Source: a virus. From it: a DNA stretch of 64,000 bases. The notes under the pieces were generated by a model. It did no database searches, was not told the DNA's origin, and was given only the letters and a program-made list of their open reading frames with translations. Below are positions 9,960 through 46,613 of the stretch, piece after piece (position 1 is the stretch's first letter; each line of letters begins with the position of its first letter). The position numbers were made by a program, and so were the translations under genes. The stretch spans positions 2,563 through 66,562 of the IMG/VR virus record IMGVR_UViG_3300011443_000014; one strand, written 5' to 3'.

Positions 9960-11014
9960 GAATTCACCCAGTCTTCACCGGGCGGCGGGTCGGCCGCAAA
10001 CGGCACGCCGCCGAAGGTCACGACGCGGGGTGTCCAGTTCCGGCCAAACTGTTCGACGCCGACGCCGGCGCCTGGCGCCACGGAATTCCCCGTGTGATCG
10101 CAACACTGGTTCGGCACGGAGTCGTCGAGCGGAAGATCCGGCGTCGTCGCCACGGGGCCGGCGGGCACGGCTTCGTCGTCGTCATACAGGCGGGCGTAGT
10201 AGCACTTCCCCGGCATCCCGTCGAAGCCGAGGGCGTAGGTCATCCCGTAGGTGATGGCCCCTGACTTCGCCGCAAAAAACGGGGTCGCGATCTTCTCAGT
10301 CTGGCCGGTCTCGAGCACGACGCCGTCGGTCGTGCCTGGCAGATCGGTCCACGTCACGCCATCCGGCGACGTGCGCATCCGGACCGACACGTAGCCGTTG
10401 TTGTTCGGGCTGCCGAAGGTGCCGGTATCACAGCGCCAGCGGGTATCGAATTCGACCCACTTGTCGATGATGTCGGCCCACGGGAACCCGGCGCTCGTGT
10501 CGTAGTCGCTGCCTGGGCGCACGCCGCAGAACGTGTCGAGTTTGAAGTCGGTCCCGTCTTCGTCCCAGAATCCGACGAGGATCCCGCGGTTGCCGCTGCC
10601 GAGGCCTTCGCGTGACGCCGACGTGTAGATGGTGACGACGGGGTAATAGAACGCGTCGGCCTTGACGTCCGCGTCGATATAGTGTCGTGAGACGGTGCGT
10701 CCCAGCGACATATTCCAGCCGTTGCCCGCATGTTCAGGGGTGCCGTCGCCATCGAGCGGGACCGTGCCGAAGTCGCTGAAGACCGCGCCGGTACTCACCC
10801 ACTCCGGGGAATAACCCGAACTGACATCGATCCCTTTTTCGCTGGCGGGTCCGACACCGGACGGCTTGAACCACGTCCCTTCGTACTGCCAGATGTCCGG
10901 GCGATCCGCGTCGGCCGCATCCGATCCGACGATGGGCTGGTGCTTGAAATCGTCGGTGTTGTCCATCCATGTCGCTGGTACCGGACCAGCGAACAGGTCA
11001 ACGACCAGCGCCAT
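9956..11014 (-). CDS. Minor tail protein, possible ConA/lectin-like fold
   Basis: 352 aa in tail-tip module; aromatic/Gly/Asp-rich; KWVEFDTRWR..NNNGYVSV pattern. Confidence 0.55.
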   Translation of the reverse strand: MALVVDLFAGPVPATWMDNTDDFKHQPIVGSDAADADRPDIWQYEGTWFKPSGVGPASEKGIDVSSGYSPEWVSTGAVFSDFGTVPLDGDGTPEHAGNGWNMSLGRTVSRHYIDADVKADAFYYPVVTIYTSASREGLGSGNRGILVGFWDEDGTDFKLDTFCGVRPGSDYDTSAGFPWADIIDKWVEFDTRWRCDTGTFGSPNNNGYVSVRMRTSPDGVTWTDLPGTTDGVVLETGQTEKIATPFFAAKSGAITYGMTYALGFDGMPGKCYYARLYDDDEAVPAGPVATTPDLPLDDSVPNQCCDHTGNSVAPGAGVGVEQFGRNWTPRVVTFGGVPFAADPPPGEDWVNS

Positions 11015-17127: not shown

Positions 17128-17535
17128 TTAGTCGAACCCGACGATCTTCCACGGGCCGCCCGCCACGTAGCTCGCGGCGATCTCGTTGGCGGACGTGACC
17201 GTGTTGGACATCGAGATCGAGAGCCACGCCGTCCCGTACGCGTACTTCGACGGCATGTTGCGCGACCAGTAGAGGTACACCTTCACCGGCGCGGTCGAGC
17301 GCTGGGCCTTGAACCACTTGTCTTCGTCTTCCTTGACAAAGCCATTGATGGTGCCCGTCAGGTCGGGCAGACCCTGCACGTACTGCTTGTTCGAGTCACC
17401 GAACGACGTCACTTCGACGGTGTCGGTGGCCATGTCCAGCGTCCACTCGCTCGCGCCCAGCAGCTCCGACGCTTCGGCGCTGCCATCTTCGGCGAGGTAG
17501 ACGATGGCGTCTTTCGCATGGTAAGGAACAGACAC
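17128..17535 (-). CDS. Major tail (tube) protein
   Basis: 135 aa; EWTLDMATDTVEVTSFGDSNKQYVQGLPDLTGTINGF tube-family motif; GGAGG RBS. Confidence 0.9.
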   Translation of the reverse strand: MSVPYHAKDAIVYLAEDGSAEASELLGASEWTLDMATDTVEVTSFGDSNKQYVQGLPDLTGTINGFVKEDEDKWFKAQRSTAPVKVYLYWSRNMPSKYAYGTAWLSISMSNTVTSANEIAASYVAGGPWKIVGFD

Positions 17536-17671: not shown

Positions 17672-18814
17672 TTACTGGACGGTCGAGGCCATCCCAGCCT
17701 CCACACTCATGTCCCGCACTGGTGCATCCCGCACGCAGTCCGCCACGCGCTCGAGGTCCGCGACGACCTGGCGCGCACGGTCGGTCCATGAATGCCCGCT
17801 GACCGTCGCGGGCAGCTGCGCAGCGATCGACCGACGGCCCGAGTCGTCAGTGAGAAAGCGGCGCAGCAGCATCTGAAGATCCGACGCGTTCCTGAAGGTC
17901 GGGACCAGTCGACCGAAGGTTTCCTCAACCTCAGGGCGGTACTCCGACAACGTGAACACACCGGAGGCCGCGAGCTCGTAGCTGCGCGGACCCAAACTCT
18001 CGGCCCCTTCAATCCTGGGGGCCTTCACCGCGAACCCGCACGACGAGCGGAACAGGTTCAGCGCAATCTTCGCTCGACGGTGGAGCATCGTCGTCGTCGT
18101 GTTGTCGACCGCGCCCTGGCGGACGAACTGCCGTAGCGGTGACTTCCGCCGCAGACGCCAGAAGCCGTAGAGGCCGAAGTCGATCCCCGTCCAGTCGACG
18201 GCCTCGAGGATTTCGACGCGCTCCTGGAACCCGGTCCCGACGAACACGACGTCGTGTGCCGGCACGTCAGGGTCGAGCGGGCCGCCCGGTTTGTGGACGT
18301 CGGCGTTGAAGCCGTGTCGGAGGTAGCTGGTCTCACGGCAGTAGTTCTGGAACCACCGTACGCCCGTCCGTTCATTCGTCCATGCGACGTCGCAGAACTG
18401 AATGGCGAAGGCTTCCTTCTTCGCGTCGTACGGGGTCTCGGTCAGGAGCATCGACACTCGAACCGGCGACCCGTCGCGGCGGCGGCACTGCTTCAACATG
18501 GCAAGGGCGTCGGGATGGAAATACATCCCCGACACGATCACGATCCAGTCCGGGTCGTGACGCAAGGCCCAGGTGACGGCGAGCTCGCTAGCCCACAAGG
18601 CCGCATCAGCGGCTCTCGGACGTGTGCCGCGTTCTTCCGGGGTGCGCCCCCGCCGTCGCCAGTGAGCCTCGAGCGCGACTCGGAGCACGCCGAACCGGCG
18701 CCCAAAGTAGTACGGCAGCACCTCGTGACCGGCCGCCTTCAGGCCGCCGACGAGGCCGTCGAAGACGTCGCGCGTCGACCAGTCGGCCGCCGGATCAATG
18801 CACAGGATCCGCAT
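17672..18814 (-). CDS. Glycosyltransferase, CgeB/DUF3880-like (GT-B)
   Basis: Start reassigned to MRILCID; motifs DVVFVGTG..ERVEIL, KIALNLFR, RSYELAASGVFTLSEYR. Confidence 0.85.
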   Translation of the reverse strand: MRILCIDPAADWSTRDVFDGLVGGLKAAGHEVLPYYFGRRFGVLRVALEAHWRRRGRTPEERGTRPRAADAALWASELAVTWALRHDPDWIVIVSGMYFHPDALAMLKQCRRRDGSPVRVSMLLTETPYDAKKEAFAIQFCDVAWTNERTGVRWFQNYCRETSYLRHGFNADVHKPGGPLDPDVPAHDVVFVGTGFQERVEILEAVDWTGIDFGLYGFWRLRRKSPLRQFVRQGAVDNTTTTMLHRRAKIALNLFRSSCGFAVKAPRIEGAESLGPRSYELAASGVFTLSEYRPEVEETFGRLVPTFRNASDLQMLLRRFLTDDSGRRSIAAQLPATVSGHSWTDRARQVVADLERVADCVRDAPVRDMSVEAGMASTVQ

Positions 18815-19328
18815 CAGCATCCTTGACCGCCGCAAAGGCGTAGACGTCGCACGGGCCTGGCGCCTCGAGTACCTGGCAGACGTCGAGCTCGCGTCCCGCA
18901 TCACGCAGCCAGAGGCGCAGCGTGTTGGGGTCGATGTTCTCGTAGAATTCGTCGGGCCGCAGGCCGCCGCCATCGTGCGCCGAATGAGGCTTGCGATTCG
19001 GACCGGCCGCCGTGATCAGGAGAATCCCACCCGGCGCCAGCATCTGGACCGCGCGCTGCACCATCCCCGCCGCGTCGGTCGCGTGTTCCAGGACCTCGCA
19101 GCAGACAATCGCTTCGGGTTGGAACGGCGGGTCGTACGCCATGAAGTCGGCCACCACGTCGACGCCCGGGCCTTTGTGCAGGTCGAGCGAGATGTACTCA
19201 GCCTCGCGCCCGAACAGGTCGCGGATCGTGCCGTTGATGTTCCGGCCACCGATCTCGAGGACCGTCGCCGGCATGCGCTTCAATGCCGTCGTGATCGAGG
19301 CGACGAATTGTCGGGCGTCAGGGTGCAT
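18795..19328 (-). CDS. Class I SAM-dependent methyltransferase (non-DNA type)
   Basis: VLEIGGRNING, LDLHKGPGVDVVAD, IVCCEVLEH, LAPGGILLIT. Confidence 0.85.
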   Translation of the reverse strand: MHPDARQFVASITTALKRMPATVLEIGGRNINGTIRDLFGREAEYISLDLHKGPGVDVVADFMAYDPPFQPEAIVCCEVLEHATDAAGMVQRAVQMLAPGGILLITAAGPNRKPHSAHDGGGLRPDEFYENIDPNTLRLWLRDAGRELDVCQVLEAPGPCDVYAFAAVKDADADPVH

Positions 19329-21514: not shown

Positions 21515-22666
21515 TTACGCCGCGCGCATGCGGACGCCGAGGTTCCCGTCGAGGATCTTCACGCCGTAGAGCACGTCGAGGGCCACGTAGACCTTCGACG
21601 TGTCACCGTCGTAGAACATCCGGGACCGGATGGCCAAGCCCGTGATGGGGTCGACGACCGACTCCACCTTCGCGCCCAGCTGGTTCGCAATCGACGGCAG
21701 CGGCGCCATCGCCAGCGCGGCCCAGTTCCGGTGGACCGCGATGTTCTGCGTCTTCGTCGCACCCGAGCCGCCCGACAGGACGACCGTCACGACCTGGTTG
21801 TCGACGAGCGCCGCCTTCAGCGGGGGGTAGATCGTCGCGCCCGTCACGACGCCCGTGCCGTCCGCCAGCGGGGCGTTCGTCAGGACATACTGCTGGGTCG
21901 CGCCCGTGAAGACGAGGATGTCGCCCGCCGCGAACTGCGCGGCCGCCGACACGCCGTCGAAGTTGATCGTCGACACGCCCGCGGCGAACGCGCCGTCAAC
22001 CGCACCCGCGAGGTCCGCCACCGTGGCGGAGGTCATCGACAGGCTGTTCTGGTTGGCGAACCACTCGACCCCGAACTTCGTGCCGAGCGTCCCGCGCATC
22101 TGCGTGTTGACGCCCGCATCGCCGGCGCCCTGCCACTGGCTGAACGCCGTCAGCGCCAGGAGCTTTTCCTCGAGGTAGCCGTCGATCATCCCGTGCAGGT
22201 CGTTCATCGGGACCTGGTTCGTGAACAGGACGCGCCGAGCCGCCGTCAGGTCCGCCACGGCCGCCGACGCCAGCGTGACGTCGGTGTACCACGGGATGAA
22301 CTTGATCAGCTGAATCAGCGCCTGATCGATGTTGTCCGCGAGCGCCACGGCCGCCGGGCGGATGTGGTCGTTGATGATCCGCTCGCCCGTGTACGCCAGT
22401 TCCTTGTCGGTCAGGGCGAACTTCACTTCCTTCCACTGATCGAGCTGGATGGTGACGGACTCGGGGTTGAGATCCTGCGCGGTCGACGGCGCGCTCTGCG
22501 CCGTGAAGGTGCCGGGCTTCGAGATCTGGATGCTCGAACCGGGCTGCTGTGGCGACTTGTCGTAGCCGCGATGGCACCGGGCCGCGAGGCCGAGCGCCTT
22601 TTCCAGCTGGATCAGCGCTTCGTTCGCATACCAGATGGGGTCATACGGGTTGATCACGTTGGACAT
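21515..22666 (-). CDS. Major capsid protein (P22 coat/gene 5 family)
   Basis: 383 aa; WYANEALIQLEKAL, VTIQLDQWKEVKFALTDKEL, HIRPAAVALADNID, LDVLYGVK. Confidence 0.92.
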   Translation of the reverse strand: MSNVINPYDPIWYANEALIQLEKALGLAARCHRGYDKSPQQPGSSIQISKPGTFTAQSAPSTAQDLNPESVTIQLDQWKEVKFALTDKELAYTGERIINDHIRPAAVALADNIDQALIQLIKFIPWYTDVTLASAAVADLTAARRVLFTNQVPMNDLHGMIDGYLEEKLLALTAFSQWQGAGDAGVNTQMRGTLGTKFGVEWFANQNSLSMTSATVADLAGAVDGAFAAGVSTINFDGVSAAAQFAAGDILVFTGATQQYVLTNAPLADGTGVVTGATIYPPLKAALVDNQVVTVVLSGGSGATKTQNIAVHRNWAALAMAPLPSIANQLGAKVESVVDPITGLAIRSRMFYDGDTSKVYVALDVLYGVKILDGNLGVRMRAA

Positions 22667-23674: not shown

Positions 23675-24043
23675 GTCGGCGCCCCACAATTCGATGGACA
23701 GGTCGGTGTGAAACCGGCCCGGACTGAGGTCGAAGATCGCCGCGTCCCGCGCGCGTAGCGGGCGCAGCAGCAGTCGTTCGCCGCGGTCGGTCACGCCGCG
23801 AATCGTGTCGGCCACCACCGCCAGCGTCGTCACCGGCAACTCGAACCACCGCGAGTCGGTCCGGTACCGCAGAGTGCTCACGTCGGTCTCGAGGTCCGTC
23901 TCCAGACGCAGTTCGGCGGCGTAGGCGGTCAGGTCGCCACGCTGGACGGCGAACGGTCCGTAGGCCAGCGGGGGGTCATCCTGGCCGCGGTCCTTACCAC
24001 GCATGCCGGGCGGGATGTCGATAGGGTCGAGACGCACGCTCAT
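23672..24043 (-). CDS. Hypothetical protein, candidate immunity partner of the MuF fusion
   Basis: 123 aa; ATGA overlap with the MuF stop. Confidence 0.7.
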   Translation of the reverse strand: MSVRLDPIDIPPGMRGKDRGQDDPPLAYGPFAVQRGDLTAYAAELRLETDLETDVSTLRYRTDSRWFELPVTTLAVVADTIRGVTDRGERLLLRPLRARDAAIFDLSPGRFHTDLSIELWGAD

Positions 24044-27000
24044 TTGAAGATGTCCTCGAGACGTCGGCGCCCGAGATGCGTGATCCCCTTCGCGCGCGCC
24101 TTGGCGATGACCGAATTCCTGACCGCCGTGTCGCCGATCCGAATCGAGTCGATGTCGTCCCAGTCGATGCGGTGCTTGAACATCGTCTCCTGGCTGCCGC
24201 TCGTGTACTGCACGTTCTGCAGGTTGTTCCGGGAATGCACGCCGGATCGGGAATTCGGGTTCTGCGCGCCGTACGTGTCGCTGGCGTAGGCGAACCAGTC
24301 CAGCCGACGGAGCAGGTCGCCGCTCAGGGTCACGTTCGCGCGGCCGGTCTTCGCGCCCGTGTGCTGCCGGGTGAAGATGTAATCCGCCCCACCGGTCTGG
24401 ATGTCCGAGCTCGAGGACATGCCCGATACGCCGATCCCTTCGGAGTACCGGGTCGTCGTGGCCGACAACCCGCCGTTCTCGATCATCGACATGATCGTCG
24501 ACTCGCTCGAGCTCGAAAGCGAGTGACTGAAGTGGGTGATCTTCGTGTGCGCCTTCAGTTTCGCGGTCGCCGCGTCGGTGAACTGCAGACGCGGGCGCCC
24601 GAAGTCGTCCTTCGTCAACACGATGTCCGCCGGCGTGATGCCGACCTTCGTTTTGATTTCCGTCAGGACCTTCGCACGCTCGCTCGCGTTGAGGTCTTTC
24701 ACGCCCGTCTGGAACAGACGCACAAACGCGTTCTCGCCGTACTCCGCGATCTGCGCGTCGGTCGGGTAGGACACGGACCGGACGCCGAGTTTGTCCAGGG
24801 CGGCCTTCAGGTGCTTCGGGTCCGGGGTGCCGGCGCCGTTCTTCACGAAGATCTGGACCGTTCCGTCGTACGCCCAGCCCGAGTCGTCGGGTCGGTGGAA
24901 CAGGATCTCGGTATCCGCGTCGACCTGGACCTTGTAAGTCTTCCCGCTGATCCCGGAGTGCGCATTCGTGCCGGTCAGGTGTGGACGCTGTCCGTAGCCT
25001 TGCACGGATTGCTTCGGCATGTGGAACGGCTGCACCGCCCCCGGTTCGGCCGCCAGTTTCGTCGTCGCCCGAGTTTTCGCATCGCCCGTGAGCTTGAACT
25101 TGAATTCCGTGACGGGCTTTCCGCCGGCGCGCCCGCGATGGTCCGCGACCTGGCGCACGCGAATCTCGAAACCTTCGATGTCACCACCGTCGAAGGTCAC
25201 ACCAGACCCGGCGCTGGCGTTCTCGGCCTTCAGGCTGAGGGCGATCGCGTCGTCGTAGGAATTCTGGCTGTTCAGTTGGGCGCCGAAGACGTCCGAGCTC
25301 GAGCGTCGTCCGAGCACCGGGACCACGCGCGGCGGCGGCGGCGGGGCGTTGATGACGTTCAGGATCTCCGTGCGCTTGGCCGCCAGTTTCTTCGTCCTGG
25401 CGTCGAGCATCTTCACGATCCGGGCCTTCGTCGTCGGGTCCGCCTGAGGGAGCACGTCGTCGACGTACGCCTTCCAGCCGCCCTTCGACTTTTGCAGGGC
25501 CAGGACGTGGTCGATCTGCTTCACCGCCTTGGCGCCGAGGTCGTCCGCGCTCGAGATGCCAGCGCCGTCGAAGACCTGTTTGTAATACACGTTTTTGTTG
25601 ATGAACGAATCCCACTCCGTGATCTCGTCGAGGACGTTGTCGGGTTTCAGGCCGGCCTTCGCACGGAACAGGAACGACCCACCCTGGTCGATGCGCCGGA
25701 TCTGGCCGTTGCCGAGCACGACGACGTTGTCCAGACCCGTGCCCACGGCGTCCCAGTTGGCCGTCAGGACGTCGCCGACGAACCCGTCGAGGATCTGGTC
25801 GGCACGGTCCTTCGTCATCCCGAGGTTGCCGACGGTGCCTTTCACGTCGTCGAGGTACTTCGAGGCGAACACCTGACGCCCGTCCGCGAGGACGCCTGAC
25901 ACGGACTGCGGCGCGCCGATGCCGAGGTCGTTGTAGATGCGGTTCGCCAGCATCTCCCCTTGGGCTTGCTTGGCGTCGGGGTAGAACTTCACGTACCACT
26001 TCGAGCCGTCGGGCGCCTCGAACAGGCCACCCGGGTTCGACCCTCCCTGCGGGCCGACTTGCTTCTTCACCAGCGCCTCGAGGTCGACGGCCGGCGCGGG
26101 TCCGTGGAGTGATTGCGGCAGCACCGCTGGCGCGGACGGGATCACGGGAGGCCCGACAGGGGGAGGGACTACCGGCGCGGCATTCTTCGCGTCGATGACC
26201 GCGTTCAGTTTCGACGTGAACGTCGCGCCACCCTTTTTGTAGTCGTCGACGAGGGCCTTCTGTTCGACCGCCGTCAACTTCTTCAGTTTGTTGATCGTGA
26301 GCGTGTGCGGTCCGCTGGTTCCGAACAGGGCGTTGATCTCGTCGATCACCCCGTTAGCGCTGAGGGCAGGTCCTGGCAGGACTGACTTCGCCTGGCCGTT
26401 GATCATCGCGGCGATCGCGTCGTCGACATTCGTCGAGAACGTCGCGTTCATGTGGTTGATCGCCGTGGCCTGGTCGGCCGCCGTCAGGACGTTCAGTTTC
26501 TTCGCGGCATCGAGGCCGAGGCCGTTCTGTTGGACCCACTGCACGGACGACGGGGTCAGGTTCGACGTGCTCGAGGCCCCAGTCTTCGCGGCCTTCTTTT
26601 TCGCCGCGTGCTTCACCGCGGCCGCCTTTTTCGACGCCTTGTACGCCGCCAGTTCCGGGTCGAGGTCGACCACCTTGGCGACGATGGTCTTCGCCGACTT
26701 CGCCCACGCCTTCAGCACCTCCTGCGTCCCGTGTGAACTCTCGACCCAGTACTTCCCGTCGGCCTTGAAGATGGTCGGCAGGGCCTGAGAGAACTGCATC
26801 GTCGTCGGCGCGACCTCCTGGGCGAACGCCGACGTGACGTGGATGTCTTTCAGGTCCACGATGACGTTACTCGTGACCGGCGTCTTTTTGATCGCCGTGT
26901 CCCACGCCGTCTGCGCAATCCCGTTGTGGGTCGCCACCTTCGGGAACGGCACGTCGACGAGGTTCCCCACGCTGCCGAAGTTCACCGCGTTCGGGTCTTC

Positions 27001-28833
27001 GATGGCCTTCAGTTTCAGCGCGGGCTTCTGGAACTGGACGAAGTCGTCGATGTCGACGATCTCCACCTTCACCGGTTTCCCGAGGGCCTTGGCCGCCATC
27101 ATCAGGTCGGCCGACTTCTGGTCCGGAGCGACGTAATAGTTCGTGTAGCCGGGTACGGGCGACTGCTTGAACACCAGCACGGAGTCGGTCGTGTTCGTCA
27201 GGGCTTTCTGCGTGCCTTTCAACGATGCCGACTTCGCGCCCTTCGTGACGATCAGGTTGTCAGGGAATAGTTCGCTCGCTTGACGGTTCGGCATGGCGCC
27301 GATGATGTCGTCCGGGCTGATCAGCGCGTGCAGTTCGTCCTTGACCGCACTCCCCGGCAGGTCGTCGAACAGTTGGGTCGCTTCGTTGAACCCCAGTTCC
27401 TGTTTGAGATCGTGAACCTTCGGCCACCCCGCCTTCGTGAAGTCGTCGAGGTCGTAGAGCTTCATCGTCAGGTCGTCGGCGCCGTTCGCCCATTCGCCGT
27501 ACGCCTTCACGTTCCCGCGCCAGATGTAGGTCTTCCCTTCCCAGCGGACCGCCGTCACCGTCGGGGTCAATCCGTTCGGCATCGTGCCGGTCGCCAGATA
27601 CGACTCGATCTGCGCGGCCTTCGCGCCCGCCGCGGTCGTGTCGACGATCCCGGCGATGTCCTTCATCTTCACCGTCACCGTCGGCAGGTCGGAGATCTGG
27701 ACGGCGTCGTTCAGGTAGTCCAGGTGCGCCGGGTTCCACGTCGCCGCCGGATCGATGACCGTGAACGGCGAACCCGTCACCTTCCCCGCGTCGTCGACGC
27801 CGAGCGATCGGAGTTTCAGCAGATTCGACGGCACCGGCGGCGCCGGCCTGACGAACGGGGGCACACTCCGCGGCAGGTCCGGGATCGAGGGCCGAGGATA
27901 CGCCGGCGGCGGCACGAAGGGCTTCGCGCCCTTGAACGGCTTCGGGGCGCCTTTCCCTTCGGTCGGTTTGCCACGGACCAGCGCCATGACGCAGCGACAC
28001 TGCGGGTGTGCCGGCGGGGTGTCCTTCGGGCCGTACGTGGTTTTGAACGGTTCGGTCGGCTGGACCTGTTGCCCTTGCAGGGGCGCACAGTAGGGGCACA
28101 GACGGTCGTCCGGGGTCACGATCCAGCGCTTGACCATCCCGGCGCCGATCTCCCCCCGGTTCTTCGCTTCCGTCCACGCGTCCAGTTGGCCGGCGTGCAT
28201 CGCCGACAGGACCTCCGTCCTGGCGATGACCTCGCCGCGGGACCGGAGCAGTCGCTTCCGGTAGCGCTCGACGGCCTTGGCGGCGGCAGCCTGGGCCTTG
28301 GGCGTCGTCGCCTGGGTGAACCGCTCCTGGGCAAACTTGCCGAGCGCCGCCGCACGCCGGGGGTCGAGGCCGACCACCGCGCGCACCTGACGCGCCACGG
28401 TTTCCGCGGTCCCGCCGCCGGCGACGGCCTGAGCCACGATGTCCCGGACGGCGTTTCGTTGCGACTCCTGAATCTGGACGATCAGGTTCGATGAGCGGGT
28501 CGAGGCCCAGAGGACCGCCGAGGGGTTCACCAGCCGGAACTGACCGCCGAGGCCGAAGTGTGTCGGGACCGGGGCGTCGATCTGGCCGAGGGCCGCGCCC
28601 GCCGCCATGGCCTGGGACGTCGCCTGGAACAGGGCGCTTTCGAACGCCTGGGCGCCGGGGGCCCAGCCCTGGGCGACCGTCTGGGCGGCCTGGGTCCACT
28701 GCCCGGTCTTCAGACGGGACTCGACGAGCCGCCAGTTCACCGACGCCCCGGCCTTCTCAGCGGCCTCGAGGACGACGCGACGGTATCCGGGGATCTGGGC
28801 GTCGGCCGAGGCCAGCAACTCGCGCCAGCCCAT
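24040..28833 (-). CDS. MuF (gp7/gpF-type) minor head protein fused to ParB-like repeats, a kinase-like domain and an ART-like domain
   Basis: MuF: VIARTE, KRWIVTPDDRLCPYC, PPAHPQCRC; kinase: GPQGGSNPGG..WYVK..EMLANRIY..DVLTANWD..RIDQG; C-terminus: THFSH..IENGGL..DYIFTR..QETMFK. Confidence 0.88.
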   Translation of the reverse strand: MGWRELLASADAQIPGYRRVVLEAAEKAGASVNWRLVESRLKTGQWTQAAQTVAQGWAPGAQAFESALFQATSQAMAAGAALGQIDAPVPTHFGLGGQFRLVNPSAVLWASTRSSNLIVQIQESQRNAVRDIVAQAVAGGGTAETVARQVRAVVGLDPRRAAALGKFAQERFTQATTPKAQAAAAKAVERYRKRLLRSRGEVIARTEVLSAMHAGQLDAWTEAKNRGEIGAGMVKRWIVTPDDRLCPYCAPLQGQQVQPTEPFKTTYGPKDTPPAHPQCRCVMALVRGKPTEGKGAPKPFKGAKPFVPPPAYPRPSIPDLPRSVPPFVRPAPPVPSNLLKLRSLGVDDAGKVTGSPFTVIDPAATWNPAHLDYLNDAVQISDLPTVTVKMKDIAGIVDTTAAGAKAAQIESYLATGTMPNGLTPTVTAVRWEGKTYIWRGNVKAYGEWANGADDLTMKLYDLDDFTKAGWPKVHDLKQELGFNEATQLFDDLPGSAVKDELHALISPDDIIGAMPNRQASELFPDNLIVTKGAKSASLKGTQKALTNTTDSVLVFKQSPVPGYTNYYVAPDQKSADLMMAAKALGKPVKVEIVDIDDFVQFQKPALKLKAIEDPNAVNFGSVGNLVDVPFPKVATHNGIAQTAWDTAIKKTPVTSNVIVDLKDIHVTSAFAQEVAPTTMQFSQALPTIFKADGKYWVESSHGTQEVLKAWAKSAKTIVAKVVDLDPELAAYKASKKAAAVKHAAKKKAAKTGASSTSNLTPSSVQWVQQNGLGLDAAKKLNVLTAADQATAINHMNATFSTNVDDAIAAMINGQAKSVLPGPALSANGVIDEINALFGTSGPHTLTINKLKKLTAVEQKALVDDYKKGGATFTSKLNAVIDAKNAAPVVPPPVGPPVIPSAPAVLPQSLHGPAPAVDLEALVKKQVGPQGGSNPGGLFEAPDGSKWYVKFYPDAKQAQGEMLANRIYNDLGIGAPQSVSGVLADGRQVFASKYLDDVKGTVGNLGMTKDRADQILDGFVGDVLTANWDAVGTGLDNVVVLGNGQIRRIDQGGSFLFRAKAGLKPDNVLDEITEWDSFINKNVYYKQVFDGAGISSADDLGAKAVKQIDHVLALQKSKGGWKAYVDDVLPQADPTTKARIVKMLDARTKKLAAKRTEILNVINAPPPPPRVVPVLGRRSSSDVFGAQLNSQNSYDDAIALSLKAENASAGSGVTFDGGDIEGFEIRVRQVADHRGRAGGKPVTEFKFKLTGDAKTRATTKLAAEPGAVQPFHMPKQSVQGYGQRPHLTGTNAHSGISGKTYKVQVDADTEILFHRPDDSGWAYDGTVQIFVKNGAGTPDPKHLKAALDKLGVRSVSYPTDAQIAEYGENAFVRLFQTGVKDLNASERAKVLTEIKTKVGITPADIVLTKDDFGRPRLQFTDAATAKLKAHTKITHFSHSLSSSSESTIMSMIENGGLSATTTRYSEGIGVSGMSSSSDIQTGGADYIFTRQHTGAKTGRANVTLSGDLLRRLDWFAYASDTYGAQNPNSRSGVHSRNNLQNVQYTSGSQETMFKHRIDWDDIDSIRIGDTAVRNSVIAKARAKGITHLGRRRLEDIFK

Positions 28834-28836
28834 GTT

Positions 28837-29076
28837 CTAGGCCTTCAGGGACAGGTTGTGGGTTTGCAGGTCGGACATCAGGCGGCGAACGAGGTCGTCG
28901 TCGATCTGGTTGGCGAGGGTTTGGGCCGCTGGACGGAGGTACCGCTCGACAAGGTCGACGTGGACGACCTTCTCGCCGAAGTCGAACGAGACTTCGAAGA
29001 ACTTCGGCGGGGTCGGGCAGACGAGGGCCGCGACCGGGACCGCCAGCAGGGACAGCAGGAACGACCGCCGGTTCAC
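28837..29076 (-). CDS. Small protein with twin-arginine-like leader and a capsid-protein-like segment
   Basis: GTG start overlapping the portal TGA, GGAGG RBS; (M)NRRSFLLSLLAVPVAAL..EVSFDF..ERYLRPAAQTLANQIDDDL. Confidence 0.7.
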   Translation of the reverse strand: MNRRSFLLSLLAVPVAALVCPTPPKFFEVSFDFGEKVVHVDLVERYLRPAAQTLANQIDDDLVRRLMSDLQTHNLSLKA

Positions 29077-37466: not shown

Positions 37467-38918
37467 CTACAGGGCGATGTAGGGGCCGGATTTGCCGAAG
37501 GTGCCTTCGGCGAGGGCACGGGCCAGCCGGTAGGCCATGATCGGCGGGACCGAATTCCCCATCCGGGCCCACGCCTGGGCCCTGGACTTCGGCAGCCAGA
37601 AGTCGTCCGGGAACGAGCAGAGGGCGCGGACCTCGTCGATGGTGATCAGCCGGCGCACGGCGAACTTGCCCGCCTCAACCGCGATGCCATGGTGCTGCTG
37701 CTGTGTCGTGACGGCGCCGGCCGGTTCGGTGCTCGAGATCTTAGGCTTGTGCTTCGCCTTCGCGGTCGGTTTGGCGTTGATGCCGGCCGCATCCACGGTC
37801 ACGGTCGACAGGTGCGGACAGGCGTCACGGATGCTGTAGCGGTATGGCAGGGGCGTCGGGAAGGTGATCGGCAGGTCGAGGTCCTGGCGCACGCACACGA
37901 AGATCACGCGGCCACGGGTTTGTGGCACGCCCAGCCATTGCGCATCGACCTTCCGGCACTCGACGCGGTAGCCGGCCGCCTTGATGGCCCGCACGATCCC
38001 GTTGTAGATGCCGCGGGCGACACCCATCGTCAGGCCGACCACGTTCTCCGCGATCGCCACCTTCGGCTGCAAGCCGTCCAGCAATCGGATCCACTCGAAA
38101 AACAAATCCTCGATCCGGTCCTGTTCCACCCCGCCGTGCATCTTCGTCTCGTTCCACCCGTCTTCACGTCGGCCGGCGGTGCTGAACGCCGTGCAAGGCG
38201 GCGATCCTTCGAACACGTCGAGCTCGCCAGCCTTCAGGCCGGTCGCGCTCAGGATGTCGGCGGCCGTGATCACGCGGATGTCGCGGCGGTCGAGGTCGAC
38301 GTCAGGGAAGTTGAACCCGTAGGTCTGTTGCGCGATCGGGTCGATGTCGTTCGCCCAGAGCGTGCGGAACCCGGCCATCTTGAACCCGAGGCACGTCCCG
38401 CCGCCACCGCTGAAGGTCGAGACGTGGGTCAGGCCATGCGTCCCGAGGGCGTGTACTTCCGACAGCAACGGTCGACGATAGGGCGGCTTCCCTGAGACAT
38501 CGACCGGGGCTTGGTCGCTGGCCGCCACGATCTGTGCGTAGTGCGCACGTTCGGCGCCGAGGCCTTCGGTCGTGATGCACGGCGCCGGGTCGTCGATCCC
38601 CGTCGTGGTGCGAATCGAATGGCCCTTCTTTTTGCTCGAGGCCAGATACGAGGCGGGCATGACGATCTCCGTCTGGTCGGTGGAACTACCGTCGATGCCG
38701 CCGGCCTGGATGCACGGCGGGGCGTCAATCGACGACGTGCGCTCCGTGCTGAATCCTGACCGACGCGCGAGGTAGGGCTCAGCCATCAGCACGACCTCGA
38801 TGTCGCTGTGGCCGCATTTCCGAATCCCGCTCGCCGTGATGCACGGTGACGGTAGGTCGAACGGCACGACGTCTTCCGCGGCCACGCCTTGCCGGTACGC
38901 GAGGAATCCATTCACCAC
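37467..38918 (-). CDS. C5-cytosine DNA methyltransferase with N-terminal repeat extension
   Basis: STFSGGGG (I), GSPPC (IV), ENV (VI), QTRGRV (VIII), RMGNSV (X). Confidence 0.92.
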   Translation of the reverse strand: MVNGFLAYRQGVAAEDVVPFDLPSPCITASGIRKCGHSDIEVVLMAEPYLARRSGFSTERTSSIDAPPCIQAGGIDGSSTDQTEIVMPASYLASSKKKGHSIRTTTGIDDPAPCITTEGLGAERAHYAQIVAASDQAPVDVSGKPPYRRPLLSEVHALGTHGLTHVSTFSGGGGTCLGFKMAGFRTLWANDIDPIAQQTYGFNFPDVDLDRRDIRVITAADILSATGLKAGELDVFEGSPPCTAFSTAGRREDGWNETKMHGGVEQDRIEDLFFEWIRLLDGLQPKVAIAENVVGLTMGVARGIYNGIVRAIKAAGYRVECRKVDAQWLGVPQTRGRVIFVCVRQDLDLPITFPTPLPYRYSIRDACPHLSTVTVDAAGINAKPTAKAKHKPKISSTEPAGAVTTQQQHHGIAVEAGKFAVRRLITIDEVRALCSFPDDFWLPKSRAQAWARMGNSVPPIMAYRLARALAEGTFGKSGPYIAL

Positions 38919-39442
38919 TCGTATCCGCAGTGTTTACAGGTGTGCTCCGTCTCGAGGACGTCGTCAATCGCGGCGAACGTGTCCGGGGCAATCACGGGGC
39001 CGCGCACCGCGCGCGCCAGTTCGTCTGGCAGGAACCCGAGCTTCGGGGCGTCGAGGCCGTCGAGCAGGTCGCGCAGTGTCGCGCCGTCCCACTGGCTGAG
39101 CTCGTTCGTGCGGTTGTCGGCGATCGCGAGGATTTGCTTCTGTTCGTCGCTCAGGCCCGTCCGTCGCACCGCGACGACCGTCTCGCCGTCGGACTCGAGG
39201 ACGAGCACCTTCGTGAACCCCGCCGCCAGTGCCGCCTCGACGACACCGTTCCCCGCCAGCACGACGTTGTGCTCGTCGAGGACCAGCGACCGGCCTGGGC
39301 CGACGGTCTTCAGGGCATGAGTGATCGCGCGGATGTTTTCCGGCGTGTGGCGCCTGGCGTTGCGCGGGTCAGGCAGGAGGTCGGCGAGGTTCAATTCGAC
39401 AGCAACCATGATGTTTGATGGGCCGACCCTCTCCACCGGCAC
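38912..39442 (-). CDS. ParB N-terminal-like domain protein, paralog 1
   Basis: LADLLPDPRNARRH, SLVLDEHNVVLAGNG, LAIADNRTNE; C-terminal CKHC. Confidence 0.85.
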   Translation of the reverse strand: MPVERVGPSNIMVAVELNLADLLPDPRNARRHTPENIRAITHALKTVGPGRSLVLDEHNVVLAGNGVVEAALAAGFTKVLVLESDGETVVAVRRTGLSDEQKQILAIADNRTNELSQWDGATLRDLLDGLDAPKLGFLPDELARAVRGPVIAPDTFAAIDDVLETEHTCKHCGYEW

Positions 39443-40028: not shown

Positions 40029-40245
40029 GGTCGATCCTCGAGGGAACAGGCACGTCGTCGAGCACGAGGACCGGGATCGTCCCGAGCGCGTGGCCCATTT
40101 TCACGATGGCTTCACCGGCTTCGTTCACGGTGAACGCCGACAGGCTGAACGCTTCCGACAGTCGTTGAAGGTTCACGGCCATTTGTTCGACGGCCGCGCG
40201 CATGGCATCTTCGACGTCTATTGGAGGCGGCGGCAACGTGGGCAT
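39997..40245 (-). CDS. Hypothetical protein
   Basis: 82 aa, GGAGAG RBS. Confidence 0.5.
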   Translation of the reverse strand: MPTLPPPPIDVEDAMRAAVEQMAVNLQRLSEAFSLSAFTVNEAGEAIVKMGHALGTIPVLVLDDVPVPSRIDHVRRRRIIIE

Positions 40246-40799
40246 CGCTCTCCCTCCTCAGTCCCGCCCGACAGTCCGTCACTGGTCGAGGCGCGGCCGC
40301 TCATCGACGCGAGGTCGTCTTTCCTGAATCCGAGTTTCGCCATCAGGTCGTCGTCGCCGGCCGTCATGGTGTCGAGGGCCGCGCGCAACTTCGGGCCGTC
40401 GAACGTCGAGAGCTCGTTCGCCCGGTTATCGGCGATCGCCAGATGGCGCTTCTGCTTGTCGTTCAACCCACGCCGGCGCACGGCGACGAGGGTGTCCGGG
40501 CCCGCGTCGACGACGACAGCCTTCGTCAGGCCCACACTCGCGGCGGCTTCGGTCGCGCCGTTACCCGCCAGGATCATGTTCCCTTCGTCGATGACGATGG
40601 ACCGCGAGAACCCGGCGGCCTGGATGGCGTCTTCGATGACGGCGAGACTCCGGGCGGTGTGGACGCGGAGGTTGTCGGGGTCGGGGGTGAAGGTCGACAC
40701 GGTGGTGTCTGTGAGAGTCGGCCCAGCGCGTCGACGAGATGGTCGCCGTACAGGGGTTTTCGTTTTCGCCGCAGCTTTTCGAGCAGGTCGCTTAGCCAC
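40218..40799 (-). CDS. ParB N-terminal-like domain protein, paralog 2
   Basis: FTPDPDNLRVH, SIVIDEGNMILAGNG, LAIADNRANE; C-terminal CPRC; basic N-terminal tail. Confidence 0.85.
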   Translation of the reverse strand: MAKRPARKAAAKTKTPVRRPSRRRAGPTLTDTTVSTFTPDPDNLRVHTARSLAVIEDAIQAAGFSRSIVIDEGNMILAGNGATEAAASVGLTKAVVVDAGPDTLVAVRRRGLNDKQKRHLAIADNRANELSTFDGPKLRAALDTMTAGDDDLMAKLGFRKDDLASMSGRASTSDGLSGGTEEGERCPRCRRLQ

Positions 40800-40802
40800 A
40801 CG

Positions 40803-41123
40803 TCATTCTCCTTGAAGGGTCGCCCGGATGTCGAAGCGGACATCCCGCATCCCGCGCATGTACTGCGAGGTGTGGTCCGCGAACGACGTGACGTCGATGG
40901 TCTCATGGGTCACGTCCACGCCGCAGAGGACGCCGACTTGTCGGAACGCGCCGTCGATGAACAGGTAAAGCGGCGGATCTTCTTTGGCTTGCCATCCGGC
41001 CTGGACGGTCGCAATGACTTCGACGAGTGAGGCCAGCGTCGTCGTCGGCGGGTGTGCTTGAACTTTCCGTACAGACGGCAGGGTCTCGAGCTCGACGCCG
41101 TCTACGAGGATCCGTCGCTTCAT
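40803..41123 (-). CDS. Hypothetical protein with a tail-tube-like C-terminal segment
   Basis: 106 aa, ATGA-coupled; VDVTHETIDVTSFADHTSQYMRGMRD. Confidence 0.7.
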   Translation of the reverse strand: MKRRILVDGVELETLPSVRKVQAHPPTTTLASLVEVIATVQAGWQAKEDPPLYLFIDGAFRQVGVLCGVDVTHETIDVTSFADHTSQYMRGMRDVRFDIRATLQGE

Positions 41124-41470
41124 CGGATGGTCTTTCGGTGCGCGCCACTCGGGCCGCTGAAGTGGCAGCCGTGACAGAGCAGTCGGCAGTTTTTCGGGTC
41201 GGTCCAGTCGCCGCCGAGGGCCTTGGACAGGATCTCGTCGACGTGGCCGACAAGGGTGAATAGTTCGTGGGCCAGATGCACGAACACGCCGCAGCGGTGC
41301 TTCCCAGCCGCGTCAGAGGGGTAGCAGTGCGGACAGCCCGTGCACTCGCATCGGGACATCGCGCGCTTCCAGACGACCGCGCAGCACTTCTTCCGGGCGC
41401 GGAGATCGACGCGCTTCAGGCGGGCCTTATGCTTCGCCCACGGTTCCGGCTTCCAGTTCGGTACGATCAT
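41120..41470 (-). CDS. HNH endonuclease-like protein
   Basis: CECTGC..HVDEILSKALGG..NCRLLCHGCH. Confidence 0.7.
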   Translation of the reverse strand: MIVPNWKPEPWAKHKARLKRVDLRARKKCCAVVWKRAMSRCECTGCPHCYPSDAAGKHRCGVFVHLAHELFTLVGHVDEILSKALGGDWTDPKNCRLLCHGCHFSGPSGAHRKTIR

Positions 41471-44124: not shown

Positions 44125-44348
44125 CAGTTCACAAACTCCACCAGCGCCCAGTCCTGCGAGATCCCTTGCTTGTCGGCGATGACGTTGCCGACGTGCTTCA
44201 TCACCGACGCGTGTTTACCGCCGAGGCCGACGACCTTCACGCGCTCACCTGGCTTCGGGGCCAGTCGCTTCGGCACAAACGCCCACGGCCGGCCATCGAG
44301 CACGGCCTTCAGGTCGTCGTCGTAGAGGCGGACGATCAGGTCATTCAT
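44124..44348 (-). CDS. Small hypothetical protein
   Basis: MNDLIVRL..; TGATG coupling on both sides. Confidence 0.55.
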   Translation of the reverse strand: MNDLIVRLYDDDLKAVLDGRPWAFVPKRLAPKPGERVKVVGLGGKHASVMKHVGNVIADKQGISQDWALVEFVN

Positions 44349-45682
44349 CAGAATCCTGCCAGTTCCGGGGGTTGGGCTTCGACGAACTTCGTCGCCGTCG
44401 CACGATAGGCGAGCTCGACGCGGGCCAGCGGGCCTTGTCGGTTCTTCGCCACCTTCAGCCAGATCTTCGCTGGCTTCGAGCGTTCGTCGCGCCAGAGCAG
44501 CCACACCTGGTCGGCGTCCTGCTCGAGGTTCCCCGACTCGCGGAGGTCCTTCAGCGTCGGCTCGCGCTTCCGTTCAGCATCGCGGCCCAGTTGTGCCAGC
44601 GCAATCACGATGACGTTCATCGACTTGGCAATGCGCTTCAGGCCGCGCGAGATTCGGCCGACGGTCAGGTGGCGCTTGTCGTCGTCGTCGTCGTCGGTGT
44701 CGCTCAACAGCTGCAGATAGTCGACGATGATGATGTCGAGGCCGCCAAGCAGTCGGCGGTGTTGCATCGCCCTCGAGCGCACTTCGGCCACCGTCTGCGC
44801 CGTGTCGTCGGTGGCGATCGACAGGTTCAGGACCGTCGCTTCCGCGAACCGGGTTTCTTCGGCTTCGTCCAGTTCACCGGAGGACAACCCGACGACCGGG
44901 ACATCGGCCGCCACGCCGACGTACCGCTGGCCGATGGAGGCCCGGTCCATCTCCGCGCTGATGAACGAGATCTTCAGGCCGGCCTTCGCCCACGGGATCG
45001 CCAGACTCACCGCCAGTGCCGTCTTCCCGACCGACGTCCTGGCGCCGACCAGCACGTATTTTCCGCGTTGAATTCCTCGCGTGACCCGGTCGAGGCCCGC
45101 CAGCCCGGTTTTGATCATCGACTCCTGGCCGCCGCGATAGTGGTCCCACACGTCCGCCATGATGGACTCGAACGAATCGGCCTCGAGCGGTCGCGCGGCG
45201 TCTTCTGCCGTGTCCAGGGTCTCGTAGAGGCTCGCGCGGATGTCATCGAACGACTCCGACGCCAGTTTGCCGCGGGTGTCTTCGAGGGCGTAGTAGAGGG
45301 CTCTCCGCCGAGACGCATCCCGGACGCGTCGAGCGACGTCGTCCCACACTTTCGAGATCGGGGCCGCATCCGACAGGCGGGACAGGTCGAGGGCTTTCAC
45401 CCCGTCGAGGCCGAGTCGTTGCAGTTCCTGGCGCACGGCCTGAAGGTGCGGCGTCTGGTTCGCGCGGACCAGTGACAGGACGGCTTGCATCGTGGTCCGG
45501 GCCACGAACCCGTGGAAATGCCCGGGCTCGATGCCGGCGCCGACGACTTCGGTAGCACGGTCCGGGTACGTCAGGATCCACCCGACCAGTGAATCCTCGA
45601 GGTCTTTGTCCCAGACCAGTTTCGAGGTCAGGAGATCCTTCGGCGGTTCCGGGCGGTCGTCCACCTTCATTCGGCGCCTCAT
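44348..45682 (-). CDS. dnaB: DnaB-like replicative helicase
   Basis: Start reassigned (ATGA with the initiator stop); GARTSVGKT, FISAEM, IIVDYLQL, LAQLGR, DLRESGNLEQDAD, KNRQGP. Confidence 0.95.
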   Translation of the reverse strand: MRRRMKVDDRPEPPKDLLTSKLVWDKDLEDSLVGWILTYPDRATEVVGAGIEPGHFHGFVARTTMQAVLSLVRANQTPHLQAVRQELQRLGLDGVKALDLSRLSDAAPISKVWDDVARRVRDASRRRALYYALEDTRGKLASESFDDIRASLYETLDTAEDAARPLEADSFESIMADVWDHYRGGQESMIKTGLAGLDRVTRGIQRGKYVLVGARTSVGKTALAVSLAIPWAKAGLKISFISAEMDRASIGQRYVGVAADVPVVGLSSGELDEAEETRFAEATVLNLSIATDDTAQTVAEVRSRAMQHRRLLGGLDIIIVDYLQLLSDTDDDDDDKRHLTVGRISRGLKRIAKSMNVIVIALAQLGRDAERKREPTLKDLRESGNLEQDADQVWLLWRDERSKPAKIWLKVAKNRQGPLARVELAYRATATKFVEAQPPELAGF

Positions 45683-46515
45683 TTGGACACCGGCAGGTGC
45701 ACCAGGCAACGGCCGGCCGCCGCCTTCCCACAGACGCACGCCTTCAGCCGTTCGGCACGGGCCGCCGCCGCAATCTGGTCGCTCGTCCAGAGGGTCGAGG
45801 TCGTCGGGACGATGGGAACGCCGACGTCGGGGGAGGTTTCTCGCTGGCGGGCTTCCAGCGAGGCGTGGCAGGCCTTCAGGCACAACACCCACGTATCCCC
45901 GCGGGCGGCCAGACGGAGGGGGTAGTCCCGCTCGTCGAGGTACGCGTCGTCGAGGGTCAGGAATTCCCTCAGGTAATCCTCGAGGGACACGCCTTCCGGC
46001 TCGAGACGGCCGGCCAGCGTCTTCAGGTGTCGGCGCTCCTCGCGCTCGACGGTCGGCGCCACGGCCGTCCTGGGCCGGCCTTTCAGTTCCCGGTACACCC
46101 GCAGGAACAGCATCCACTGTTGCGTGCTGGCATTGATGGCGGGTCGTTGTGGTCGTCGGGGTCTTTGCATCGTCTCCTCGTCGCCGGCGACAGCCGGTAC
46201 TGACTCCCGAAGGGAGTACCGATCTAGTACATAGTCCGAACCGGCAAATCGTCGTCCCTTTTTGCCGGTTCGGAAGTGGGACAGGTCGAGCAGATCCGGC
46301 TTCCGGCCGCCGCCGGGGTTCGGCCTGGACTGGCGGCGCAGCCAGCCCCACGACTTCAGCCGGCGGTAGGCCGTGCGGACGGTCCGTTCGGACACCCCGG
46401 ACAGGTGTGCGATCGTGGTTTGCGCCCGGCTCGTACGTCGGGCGCCGGGTTTCAGTTGGGCCAGGATGGTGTCGAAGACGCGGTAGTCGGACGTCGTCAG
46501 TCGTTCAGGGGCCAT
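45679..46515 (-). CDS. Replication initiator with N-terminal winged HTH
   Basis: AQTTIAHLSGVSERTVRTAYRRLKSWGWL; directly upstream of dnaB. Confidence 0.75.
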   Translation of the reverse strand: MAPERLTTSDYRVFDTILAQLKPGARRTSRAQTTIAHLSGVSERTVRTAYRRLKSWGWLRRQSRPNPGGGRKPDLLDLSHFRTGKKGRRFAGSDYVLDRYSLRESVPAVAGDEETMQRPRRPQRPAINASTQQWMLFLRVYRELKGRPRTAVAPTVEREERRHLKTLAGRLEPEGVSLEDYLREFLTLDDAYLDERDYPLRLAARGDTWVLCLKACHASLEARQRETSPDVGVPIVPTTSTLWTSDQIAAAARAERLKACVCGKAAAGRCLVHLPVSK

Positions 46516-46583: not shown

Positions 46584-46613
46584 ACAATACGCTTCCAGTT
46601 ACACCGTCGTCAA
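46584..46613 (-). promoter_or_regulatory. Putative promoter for the replication genes
   Basis: TTGACG-18 bp-TATTGT. Confidence 0.5.

Follow-up and report, generated by a model that had tools for sequence, protein, structure and literature searches.

Why would a phage keep a copy of half of its tail tube protein among its replication genes? The question is raised by a small gene in a 64-kb stretch of DNA (the window) that covers most of the 66.9-kb IMG/VR virus record IMGVR_UViG_3300011443_000014. The window has a GC content of about 66%, and nearly all of its long genes lie on the minus strand. A comparison with 50,697 phage records by megablast and tblastn returned nothing useful, and no named phage close to the window was found. 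Relatives of its tube protein come from soil-type metagenomes and from genome bins (MAGs) labelled Actinomycetes, Propionibacteriaceae and Sorangium. The first-pass annotation placed the small ORF (40803-41123) among non-structural genes about 23 kb from the tail genes, and this placement is borne out: its neighbors are replication and recombination genes, and 23.4 kb separate it from the tube gene. The features of the locus, in window coordinates, are as follows.

40803..41123, minus strand: gene for the small protein P0001, a truncated tail-tube paralog of 106 aa, with a codon-position GC content (0.68/0.41/0.76) that is a coding pattern
40806..40982, minus strand: tube-homologous segment, codons 48-106, equivalent to tube residues 8-68 (from BLASTP, hhalign and the joint alignment)
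40983..41123, minus strand: N-terminal extension, codons 1-47, with no tube counterpart (from the alignment and the AF2 model)
41120..41470, minus strand: HNH endonuclease-like gene, whose TGA stop overlaps the ATG of the small gene (ATGA)
40218..40799, minus strand: ParB-like gene directly downstream of the small gene, with an AAGGAG ribosome-binding site inside the last codons of the latter
46584..46613, minus strand: promoter-like site TTGACG-18-TATTGT upstream of the DnaB block (from a consensus scan)

Reading along the minus strand, the genes are a DnaB helicase, a methyltransferase, RusA, an unknown 202-aa protein, a zinc-ribbon protein, the HNH protein, the small protein, a ParB-like protein, two small genes and a second ParB-like gene. 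The ATGA overlap suggests that translation of the small gene may be coupled to that of the HNH gene, and the same arrangement, a 4-base overlap, is repeated in the related phage L003. A consensus scan of the minus strand detects no terminator-like site between 47000 and 38000. The lack of such a site from the promoter-like sequence down to 38000, taken with the gene order, makes it likely that the small gene is cotranscribed with the replication genes. Its location in the DnaB-to-ParB block and its overlap with the HNH gene argue that it is probably made with the replication proteins, before or apart from the virion proteins.

Some details of this block can be recorded here. The 667-aa ORF listed for DnaB (44348-46351, minus strand) is over-extended: the 447-aa DnaB of the related phage aligns solely to 44351-45676, and a separate upstream gene matches 45691-46134. 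The two ParB-like genes (PHROG 620; 38912-39442 and 40218-40799, both on the minus strand) lie 0.8 kb apart, and both are kept in L003, which is colinear with the window (83% and 67% identity). L003 also has an extra 92-aa gene (10326-10604) between the small tube paralog and the ParB-like gene, with no counterpart in the window.

The virion proteins that enter the comparisons below are encoded elsewhere in the window.

17128..17535, minus strand: gene for the tail tube (major tail) protein P0005, the full-length paralog of 135 aa (from PHROG, from PF06199 via homologs, and from gene position)
17332..17514, minus strand: tube codons 8-68, the part matched by P0001 (from BLASTP, hhalign and the joint alignment)
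21515..22666, minus strand: 383-aa capsid candidate

Its matches and its position identify the 135-aa ORF as the tail tube protein. Among the PHROGs, its match is to major tail proteins (E = 3.7e-6). It has 47 metagenomic homologs, one of which carries PF06199, and its profile weakly matches the tube protein of a gene transfer agent (GTA; 6TBA). The gene is flanked by a glycosyltransferase gene and by the chaperone-like genes and the gene for a 1417-aa tape measure protein, directly upstream of which it lies. Each of the four phages with the small paralog has a glycosyltransferase gene directly upstream of its tube gene (window 17672-19328, minus strand; L007 8193-9858; L015 727-2886; L127 1-921). 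This gene is accompanied by a methyltransferase gene in the window and in L007, and by a second glycosyltransferase gene and a cytidylyltransferase gene in L015. A glycosyltransferase encoded beside the tube suggests that the virion or the tube may be glycosylated.

The stretch shared by the small protein and the tube is short (about 55 residues) and β-rich, features that favor a chance similarity in which a short β-strand motif has recurred without common descent. Four independent statistics reject this explanation. BLASTP aligns residues 48-95 of P0001 with residues 8-59 of P0005 at 33% identity over 52 columns (E = 2e-7, pairwise). The two proteins are reciprocal best matches (E ~ 1.5e-4) among the 842 six-frame ORFs of the window, a set made up of all stop-to-stop frames 40 aa or longer, and the next match has an E value of 0.3. 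Smith-Waterman scores are 68-78, against a mean of 25 for shuffled sequences (sd 4.4; z ~ 11), and none of 2000 shuffles reached the observed value. Finally, the profile comparison, which had been singled out beforehand as the place where the similarity might fail, is significant: when the small-protein pair is aligned by hhalign with 41 tube homologs, the probability is 87.5% and the E value 3.6e-6. Three further members of the small family each match the tube family on their own, and the tube HMM matches the small proteins of L003 (E = 1.5e-4) and L008 (E = 5e-5). A chance origin of the resemblance is scarcely credible. An alignment-free protein-language-model search also returns tube-protein clusters as the nearest neighbors of P0001 (score 0.85), a result that has the standing of a lead only.

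The homology extends over a defined part of the tube. In the joint alignment, residues 48-106 of P0001 cover tube residues 8-68, from the AK(D/E) sequence that immediately precedes strand 1 through the whole of strand 4. The small protein terminates at tube residue 68, just before the tube helix, and both this helix and the second sheet are absent. On this alignment, P0001 is a 47-residue unrelated N-terminal part joined to the N-terminal half of a tube protein. The first-pass annotation had aligned one peptide of P0001 (residues 69-99) ungapped with the tube protein, which a recount confirms with 12 identities in 31 positions. It was also right that only part of the tube fold is present, but the homology reaches further toward the N terminus than it had noted, from strand β1 onward. 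Codons 48-106 contain strands β1-β4 with the hairpin/turn motif IDVTSFxD....YxxG, and codons 1-47 contain a conserved RRIxVDGVE island, a Pro/Thr-rich linker and a predicted helix (residues 30-46). Tube residues W31, N49, K50 and Q54, which are invariant in tubes, are replaced in the small proteins, and these have a signature of their own (IDVT and SP[RK]Y).

Structure prediction is consistent with this division. The AF2 model computed from the single sequence is uninformative (pLDDT 41). When an alignment (A5) of the four small proteins and the N-terminal halves of tubes is supplied, residues 50-100 reach pLDDT 87-91, with strands at 51-56, 59-77 and 88-101, although this confidence is borrowed from the tube rows and is a sign of consistency rather than independent proof. 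The helix at residues 30-46 has a pLDDT of about 65. Overall, the model is one four-stranded sheet plus an unrelated helix, and together with the alignment it indicates that P0001 keeps the strands and the hairpin of the tube N-terminal sheet without the remaining fold. A Foldseek comparison with the PDB gave no row that reached an E value of 0.001, as expected because only half of a fold is present; the best of the weak rows are a GTA tube/neck protein and a monocin tube protein.

Relatives of the small protein are few. An exhaustive HMMER search of 1.84 billion protein representatives, a collection in which the exact P0001 sequence is present, yields one true homolog, P0002 (110 aa, 36% identity, full length, E = 2.9e-8). 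Two further candidates, P0003 and P0004, were rejected as repeat proteins that matched via low-complexity repeats. P0002 is encoded on a 47-kb phage contig that is colinear with the window, at the same position directly after the HNH gene. Genes common to the two phages are 34-87% identical, most of them 50-85%, and the extremes of this range are the tube, which is the most conserved (87%), and the small gene, which is the least conserved (34%). Replication modules of more distant relatives were located via their DnaB proteins and then searched with HMMs, which added two more members. The L008 protein (86 aa) matches the small-protein HMM with an E value of 6e-8 and the tube HMM with 5e-5, and scores z = 16 against P0002. 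The L009 protein (117 aa) has an E value of 1.4e-3 against the locus ORFs, with z = 10 against P0002 and z = 6 against the tube. In all four phages, each of them uncultured, the small gene is located in the replication module (DnaB/RusA/ParB block), and all four also carry a tube of one family.

The four small proteins share a core of about 40 residues in which D-V-T-x-F-x-D-x4-Y-x2-G is invariant in every member, and they differ in what surrounds it. In the window phage and the relative closest to it, the helix precedes the sheet, and in the L008 and L009 members the tube-like core lies near the N terminus and is followed by a different tail. Read by eye, the L008 tail is Ala-rich and probably helical. 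Identity over the homologous segment is 74-83% among the four tubes, whereas it is only 28-44% among the four small proteins. If the copies had tracked the tubes of their own phages, then a diagonal preference would be expected in the matrix of small-protein by tube scores for the four phages. None is seen, and no small protein scores best against its own tube. Both observations indicate that the duplication is old, and, as judged from these comparisons, the copy is not homogenized with the tube and is evolving several times faster while its motif is kept. The DnaB proteins of the four phages are only about 40-81% identical, and retention of the small gene in phages that have diverged to this degree argues for a function, which the gene probably has.

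The gene is also restricted in distribution. In 15 long IMG/VR records with this tube type, whose tubes are 42-59% identical to that of the window by tblastn, no clear copy of the small gene is present and the tube gene is the sole clear match. The small gene is therefore dispensable for that tube type and an accessory of a narrow clade. Other searches added nothing to the family. A word-based protein search with P0001 returned only the self-match, and an IMG/VR search with the small-protein pair, the ParB-like pair and the pair of 202-aa neighbors did not find relatives. A first degenerate DNA motif pattern had no match in viral and metagenome contigs, and a second had none in viral, metagenome and genome contigs. 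Population variation gave no information about selection, since P0002 is encoded on four contigs and its gene does not vary among them. A literature search found no paper describing a tube-fragment gene.

Two marginal look-alikes were encountered, at L113 1087-1692 (minus strand) in a 48-kb IMG/VR record and at L124 1405-1590 (minus strand) in a 35.6-kb record. The 201-aa L113 protein begins MTRRAIALDG (compare MKRRILVDGV in P0001) and has a proline-rich linker and the sequence IDVTSLKD; the 61-aa L124 protein contains PIDVTHFGESEPYYIPG. Both run on into zinc-ribbon-like cysteine pairs, and from their sequences the neighboring genes resemble terminase small subunits. Neither is counted as a member, as the statistics are marginal (E = 0.006-0.014, z = 4-6.6). 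A third candidate, L123 (G015), was rejected because its match is an out-of-frame Arg/Pro-rich stretch.

The closest known proteins are tubes of the TP901-1/Phage_tail_2 type (PF06199), such as Rcc01691 of the Rhodobacter capsulatus GTA (PDB 6TBA). Residues 48-106 of P0001 are homologous to strands β1-β4 of these proteins, the tube-conserved motif (V/I)(E/D)VT(S/A)FxD....YxxG is kept, and the structural and language-model look-alikes are tube proteins. Nevertheless, P0001 has only about half of the fold, lacking the helix and the second sheet and carrying the unrelated 47-residue extension instead. A complete tube fold of about 130 residues, with both sheets of the β-sandwich and the flanking helix, is needed for hexameric rings, and P0001 falls short of this. 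In the tail operon, a tube gene is flanked by the tail terminator gene on one side and by the chaperone and tape measure genes on the other, whereas the small gene lies between the HNH and ParB-like genes. The small protein also evolves much faster than the tubes, does not keep W31, N49, K50 and Q54, and is below the Pfam threshold; neither it nor its homologs have a Pfam match at E values up to 10. From these comparisons, P0001 belongs with the TP901-1/Phage_tail_2-type tubes by descent, yet by fold, position and family threshold it fails as a tube protein.

The reading of its role that we place first, tentatively and with less than even confidence, is that P0001 is a functional, fast-evolving truncated tube paralog that acts via tube contacts, with a decoy slightly ahead of an assembly role. 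An old duplication would have put the 5' half of the tube gene into the replication module, where the copy would persist as a small protein composed of the first four β-strands of the tube (the N-terminal sheet with its hairpin) and one helix. Half of a β-sandwich would expose strand edges and a face that is normally buried, and could thereby make tube-type protein contacts. P0001 may then bind whatever partner the N-terminal sheet of a tube monomer normally meets. If this partner is a host sensor of tube proteins, P0001 would be a decoy or blocker that binds without activating it. If the partner is the tube subunit itself, P0001 could act as a cap or brake on polymerization, for its own phage or for competing relatives. 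Given the exposed edges of a half sandwich and the conserved strand-turn-strand scaffold, protein binding in the manner of the tube N-terminal sheet is the simplest mechanism. The decoy is put slightly ahead because self-poisoning is costly, and because patchy distribution and fast evolution are typical of counter-defense genes.

There is precedent for the sensing that a decoy would have to evade. DSR2 detects monomeric tube proteins by their conserved D1 domain, with strands β2 and β8 in contact (PMC10981675), and Avs proteins are reported to recognize tail tube proteins by fold (PMC13728456). The SPbeta protein DSAD1, an inhibitor of the tube-sensing NADase DSR2, is a small phage protein that stops a defense response to the tail tube protein (PMC10981675), and it can be likened to P0001 as a proposed functional analog only. 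DSAD1 binds the open C-terminal domain of DSR2, blocks tube binding allosterically, and is not presented as a copy of the tube (PMC10981675). Profile searches of all PDB chains, including the DSR2-DSAD1 complexes, found no DSAD1 chain at E values up to 10, and no other solved chain matched by sequence.

The specific proposal that the half-tube family are decoys that present the N-terminal sheet of the tube and so occupy DSR2-like or Avs-like sensors of monomeric tube without triggering them, as a counter-defense by partial self-mimicry, is unlikely as it stands. The mimicry would be partial at best, because replacement of W31, N49, K50 and Q54 means that the exposed surface of the tube is not faithfully copied. 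Fast evolution and patchy distribution fit a decoy, and they also fit weak constraint. No defense-related context was found. The first-pass annotation had gone further and paired this gene with a capsid fragment at 28.8 kb as a self-mimicry strategy. This part is unsupported: the 79-aa ORF in question (28837-29076, minus strand) matches the 383-aa capsid candidate by BLASTP with an E value of only 5.9, and a comparison with all six-frame ORFs of the window gave nothing significant, the best other match (E = 0.66) being on the opposite strand of the capsid gene.

Several other explanations start from the same homology. The tube-derived sheet might have been recruited as a scaffold for a job in the replication/recombination module that is unrelated to tubes, for example as an accessory or specificity subunit of the HNH or ParB-like protein or in another early role. 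This is nearly as likely as the tube-contact reading. It would account for the position of the gene, which is always in the DnaB/RusA/ParB block, overlaps the HNH gene as ATGA in two phages and lies two genes after an HNH gene in L008; there is, however, no HNH gene near the L009 member. The signature residues of the small family, which differ from the tube-invariant ones, also favor such a switch. Weak Foldseek rows to HU-type helix-plus-beta-ribbon proteins point in the same direction, but they are poor (TM ~ 0.2, rmsd ~ 9). The HU-like DNA-binding reading is accordingly weak, with a charge that is net acidic or neutral, and the net charges counted by hand (about -3 for P0001 and about +1 for P0002) are atypical of a DNA binder. 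No family match points to an enzymatic or DNA-binding role. The only PHROGs hit of P0001 is a weak one to a head-tail adaptor family (E = 0.021), which does not reach the family threshold and would favor a late role as a minor tail or assembly part, such as a tube-ring cap, initiator or terminator-like protein that docks via the N-terminal sheet. Tube-fold proteins of tailed phages commonly diversify into terminators, adaptors and hub domains, and each of the four phages with the gene carries the matching tube family. We nevertheless consider a virion part improbable: all four phages have the gene in the replication block, 23 kb from the tail operon in the window, the tail operons already have terminator, tube, chaperone-like and tape measure genes, phages with this tube type lack the small gene, and it evolves far faster than structural genes.

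The gene could also be a leftover of illegitimate recombination that has no function and is open by chance or carried along by its neighbors. It is the least conserved gene common to the two colinear phages, it has a single clear homolog among 1.84 billion representatives and none in the pattern scans, and half of a fold is perhaps unstable alone. Against this, the frame is open in four phages despite the divergence of their DnaB proteins, an invariant motif stands within a core that is otherwise 28-44% identical, and the gene shows a coding GC3 pattern and is tightly coupled to both of its neighbors. A dead remnant is thus about as improbable as a virion part. The reading as a functional tube paralog that acts via tube contacts keeps its tentative first place. 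Bacterial immune proteins detect conserved phage structural proteins, including the tail tube (PMC10981675; PMC13728456), and a phage cannot avoid presenting such triggers. As a conserved, fast-evolving, early-module copy of the exposed half of the tube subunit, the P0001 family is a concrete candidate, whether for a decoy or for a regulator of tube assembly. Whether or not its function proves to involve tubes, half of a core virion gene has here clearly given rise to a new family of small genes.

The colinear phage has one more feature in common with the window. Encoded at L007 1-2957 is a very long head protein of the MuF type (Phage_Mu_F) that has Pfam matches to ADP-ribosyltransferase, and its window counterpart is a 1597-aa protein at 24040-28833 on the minus strand or its complement.
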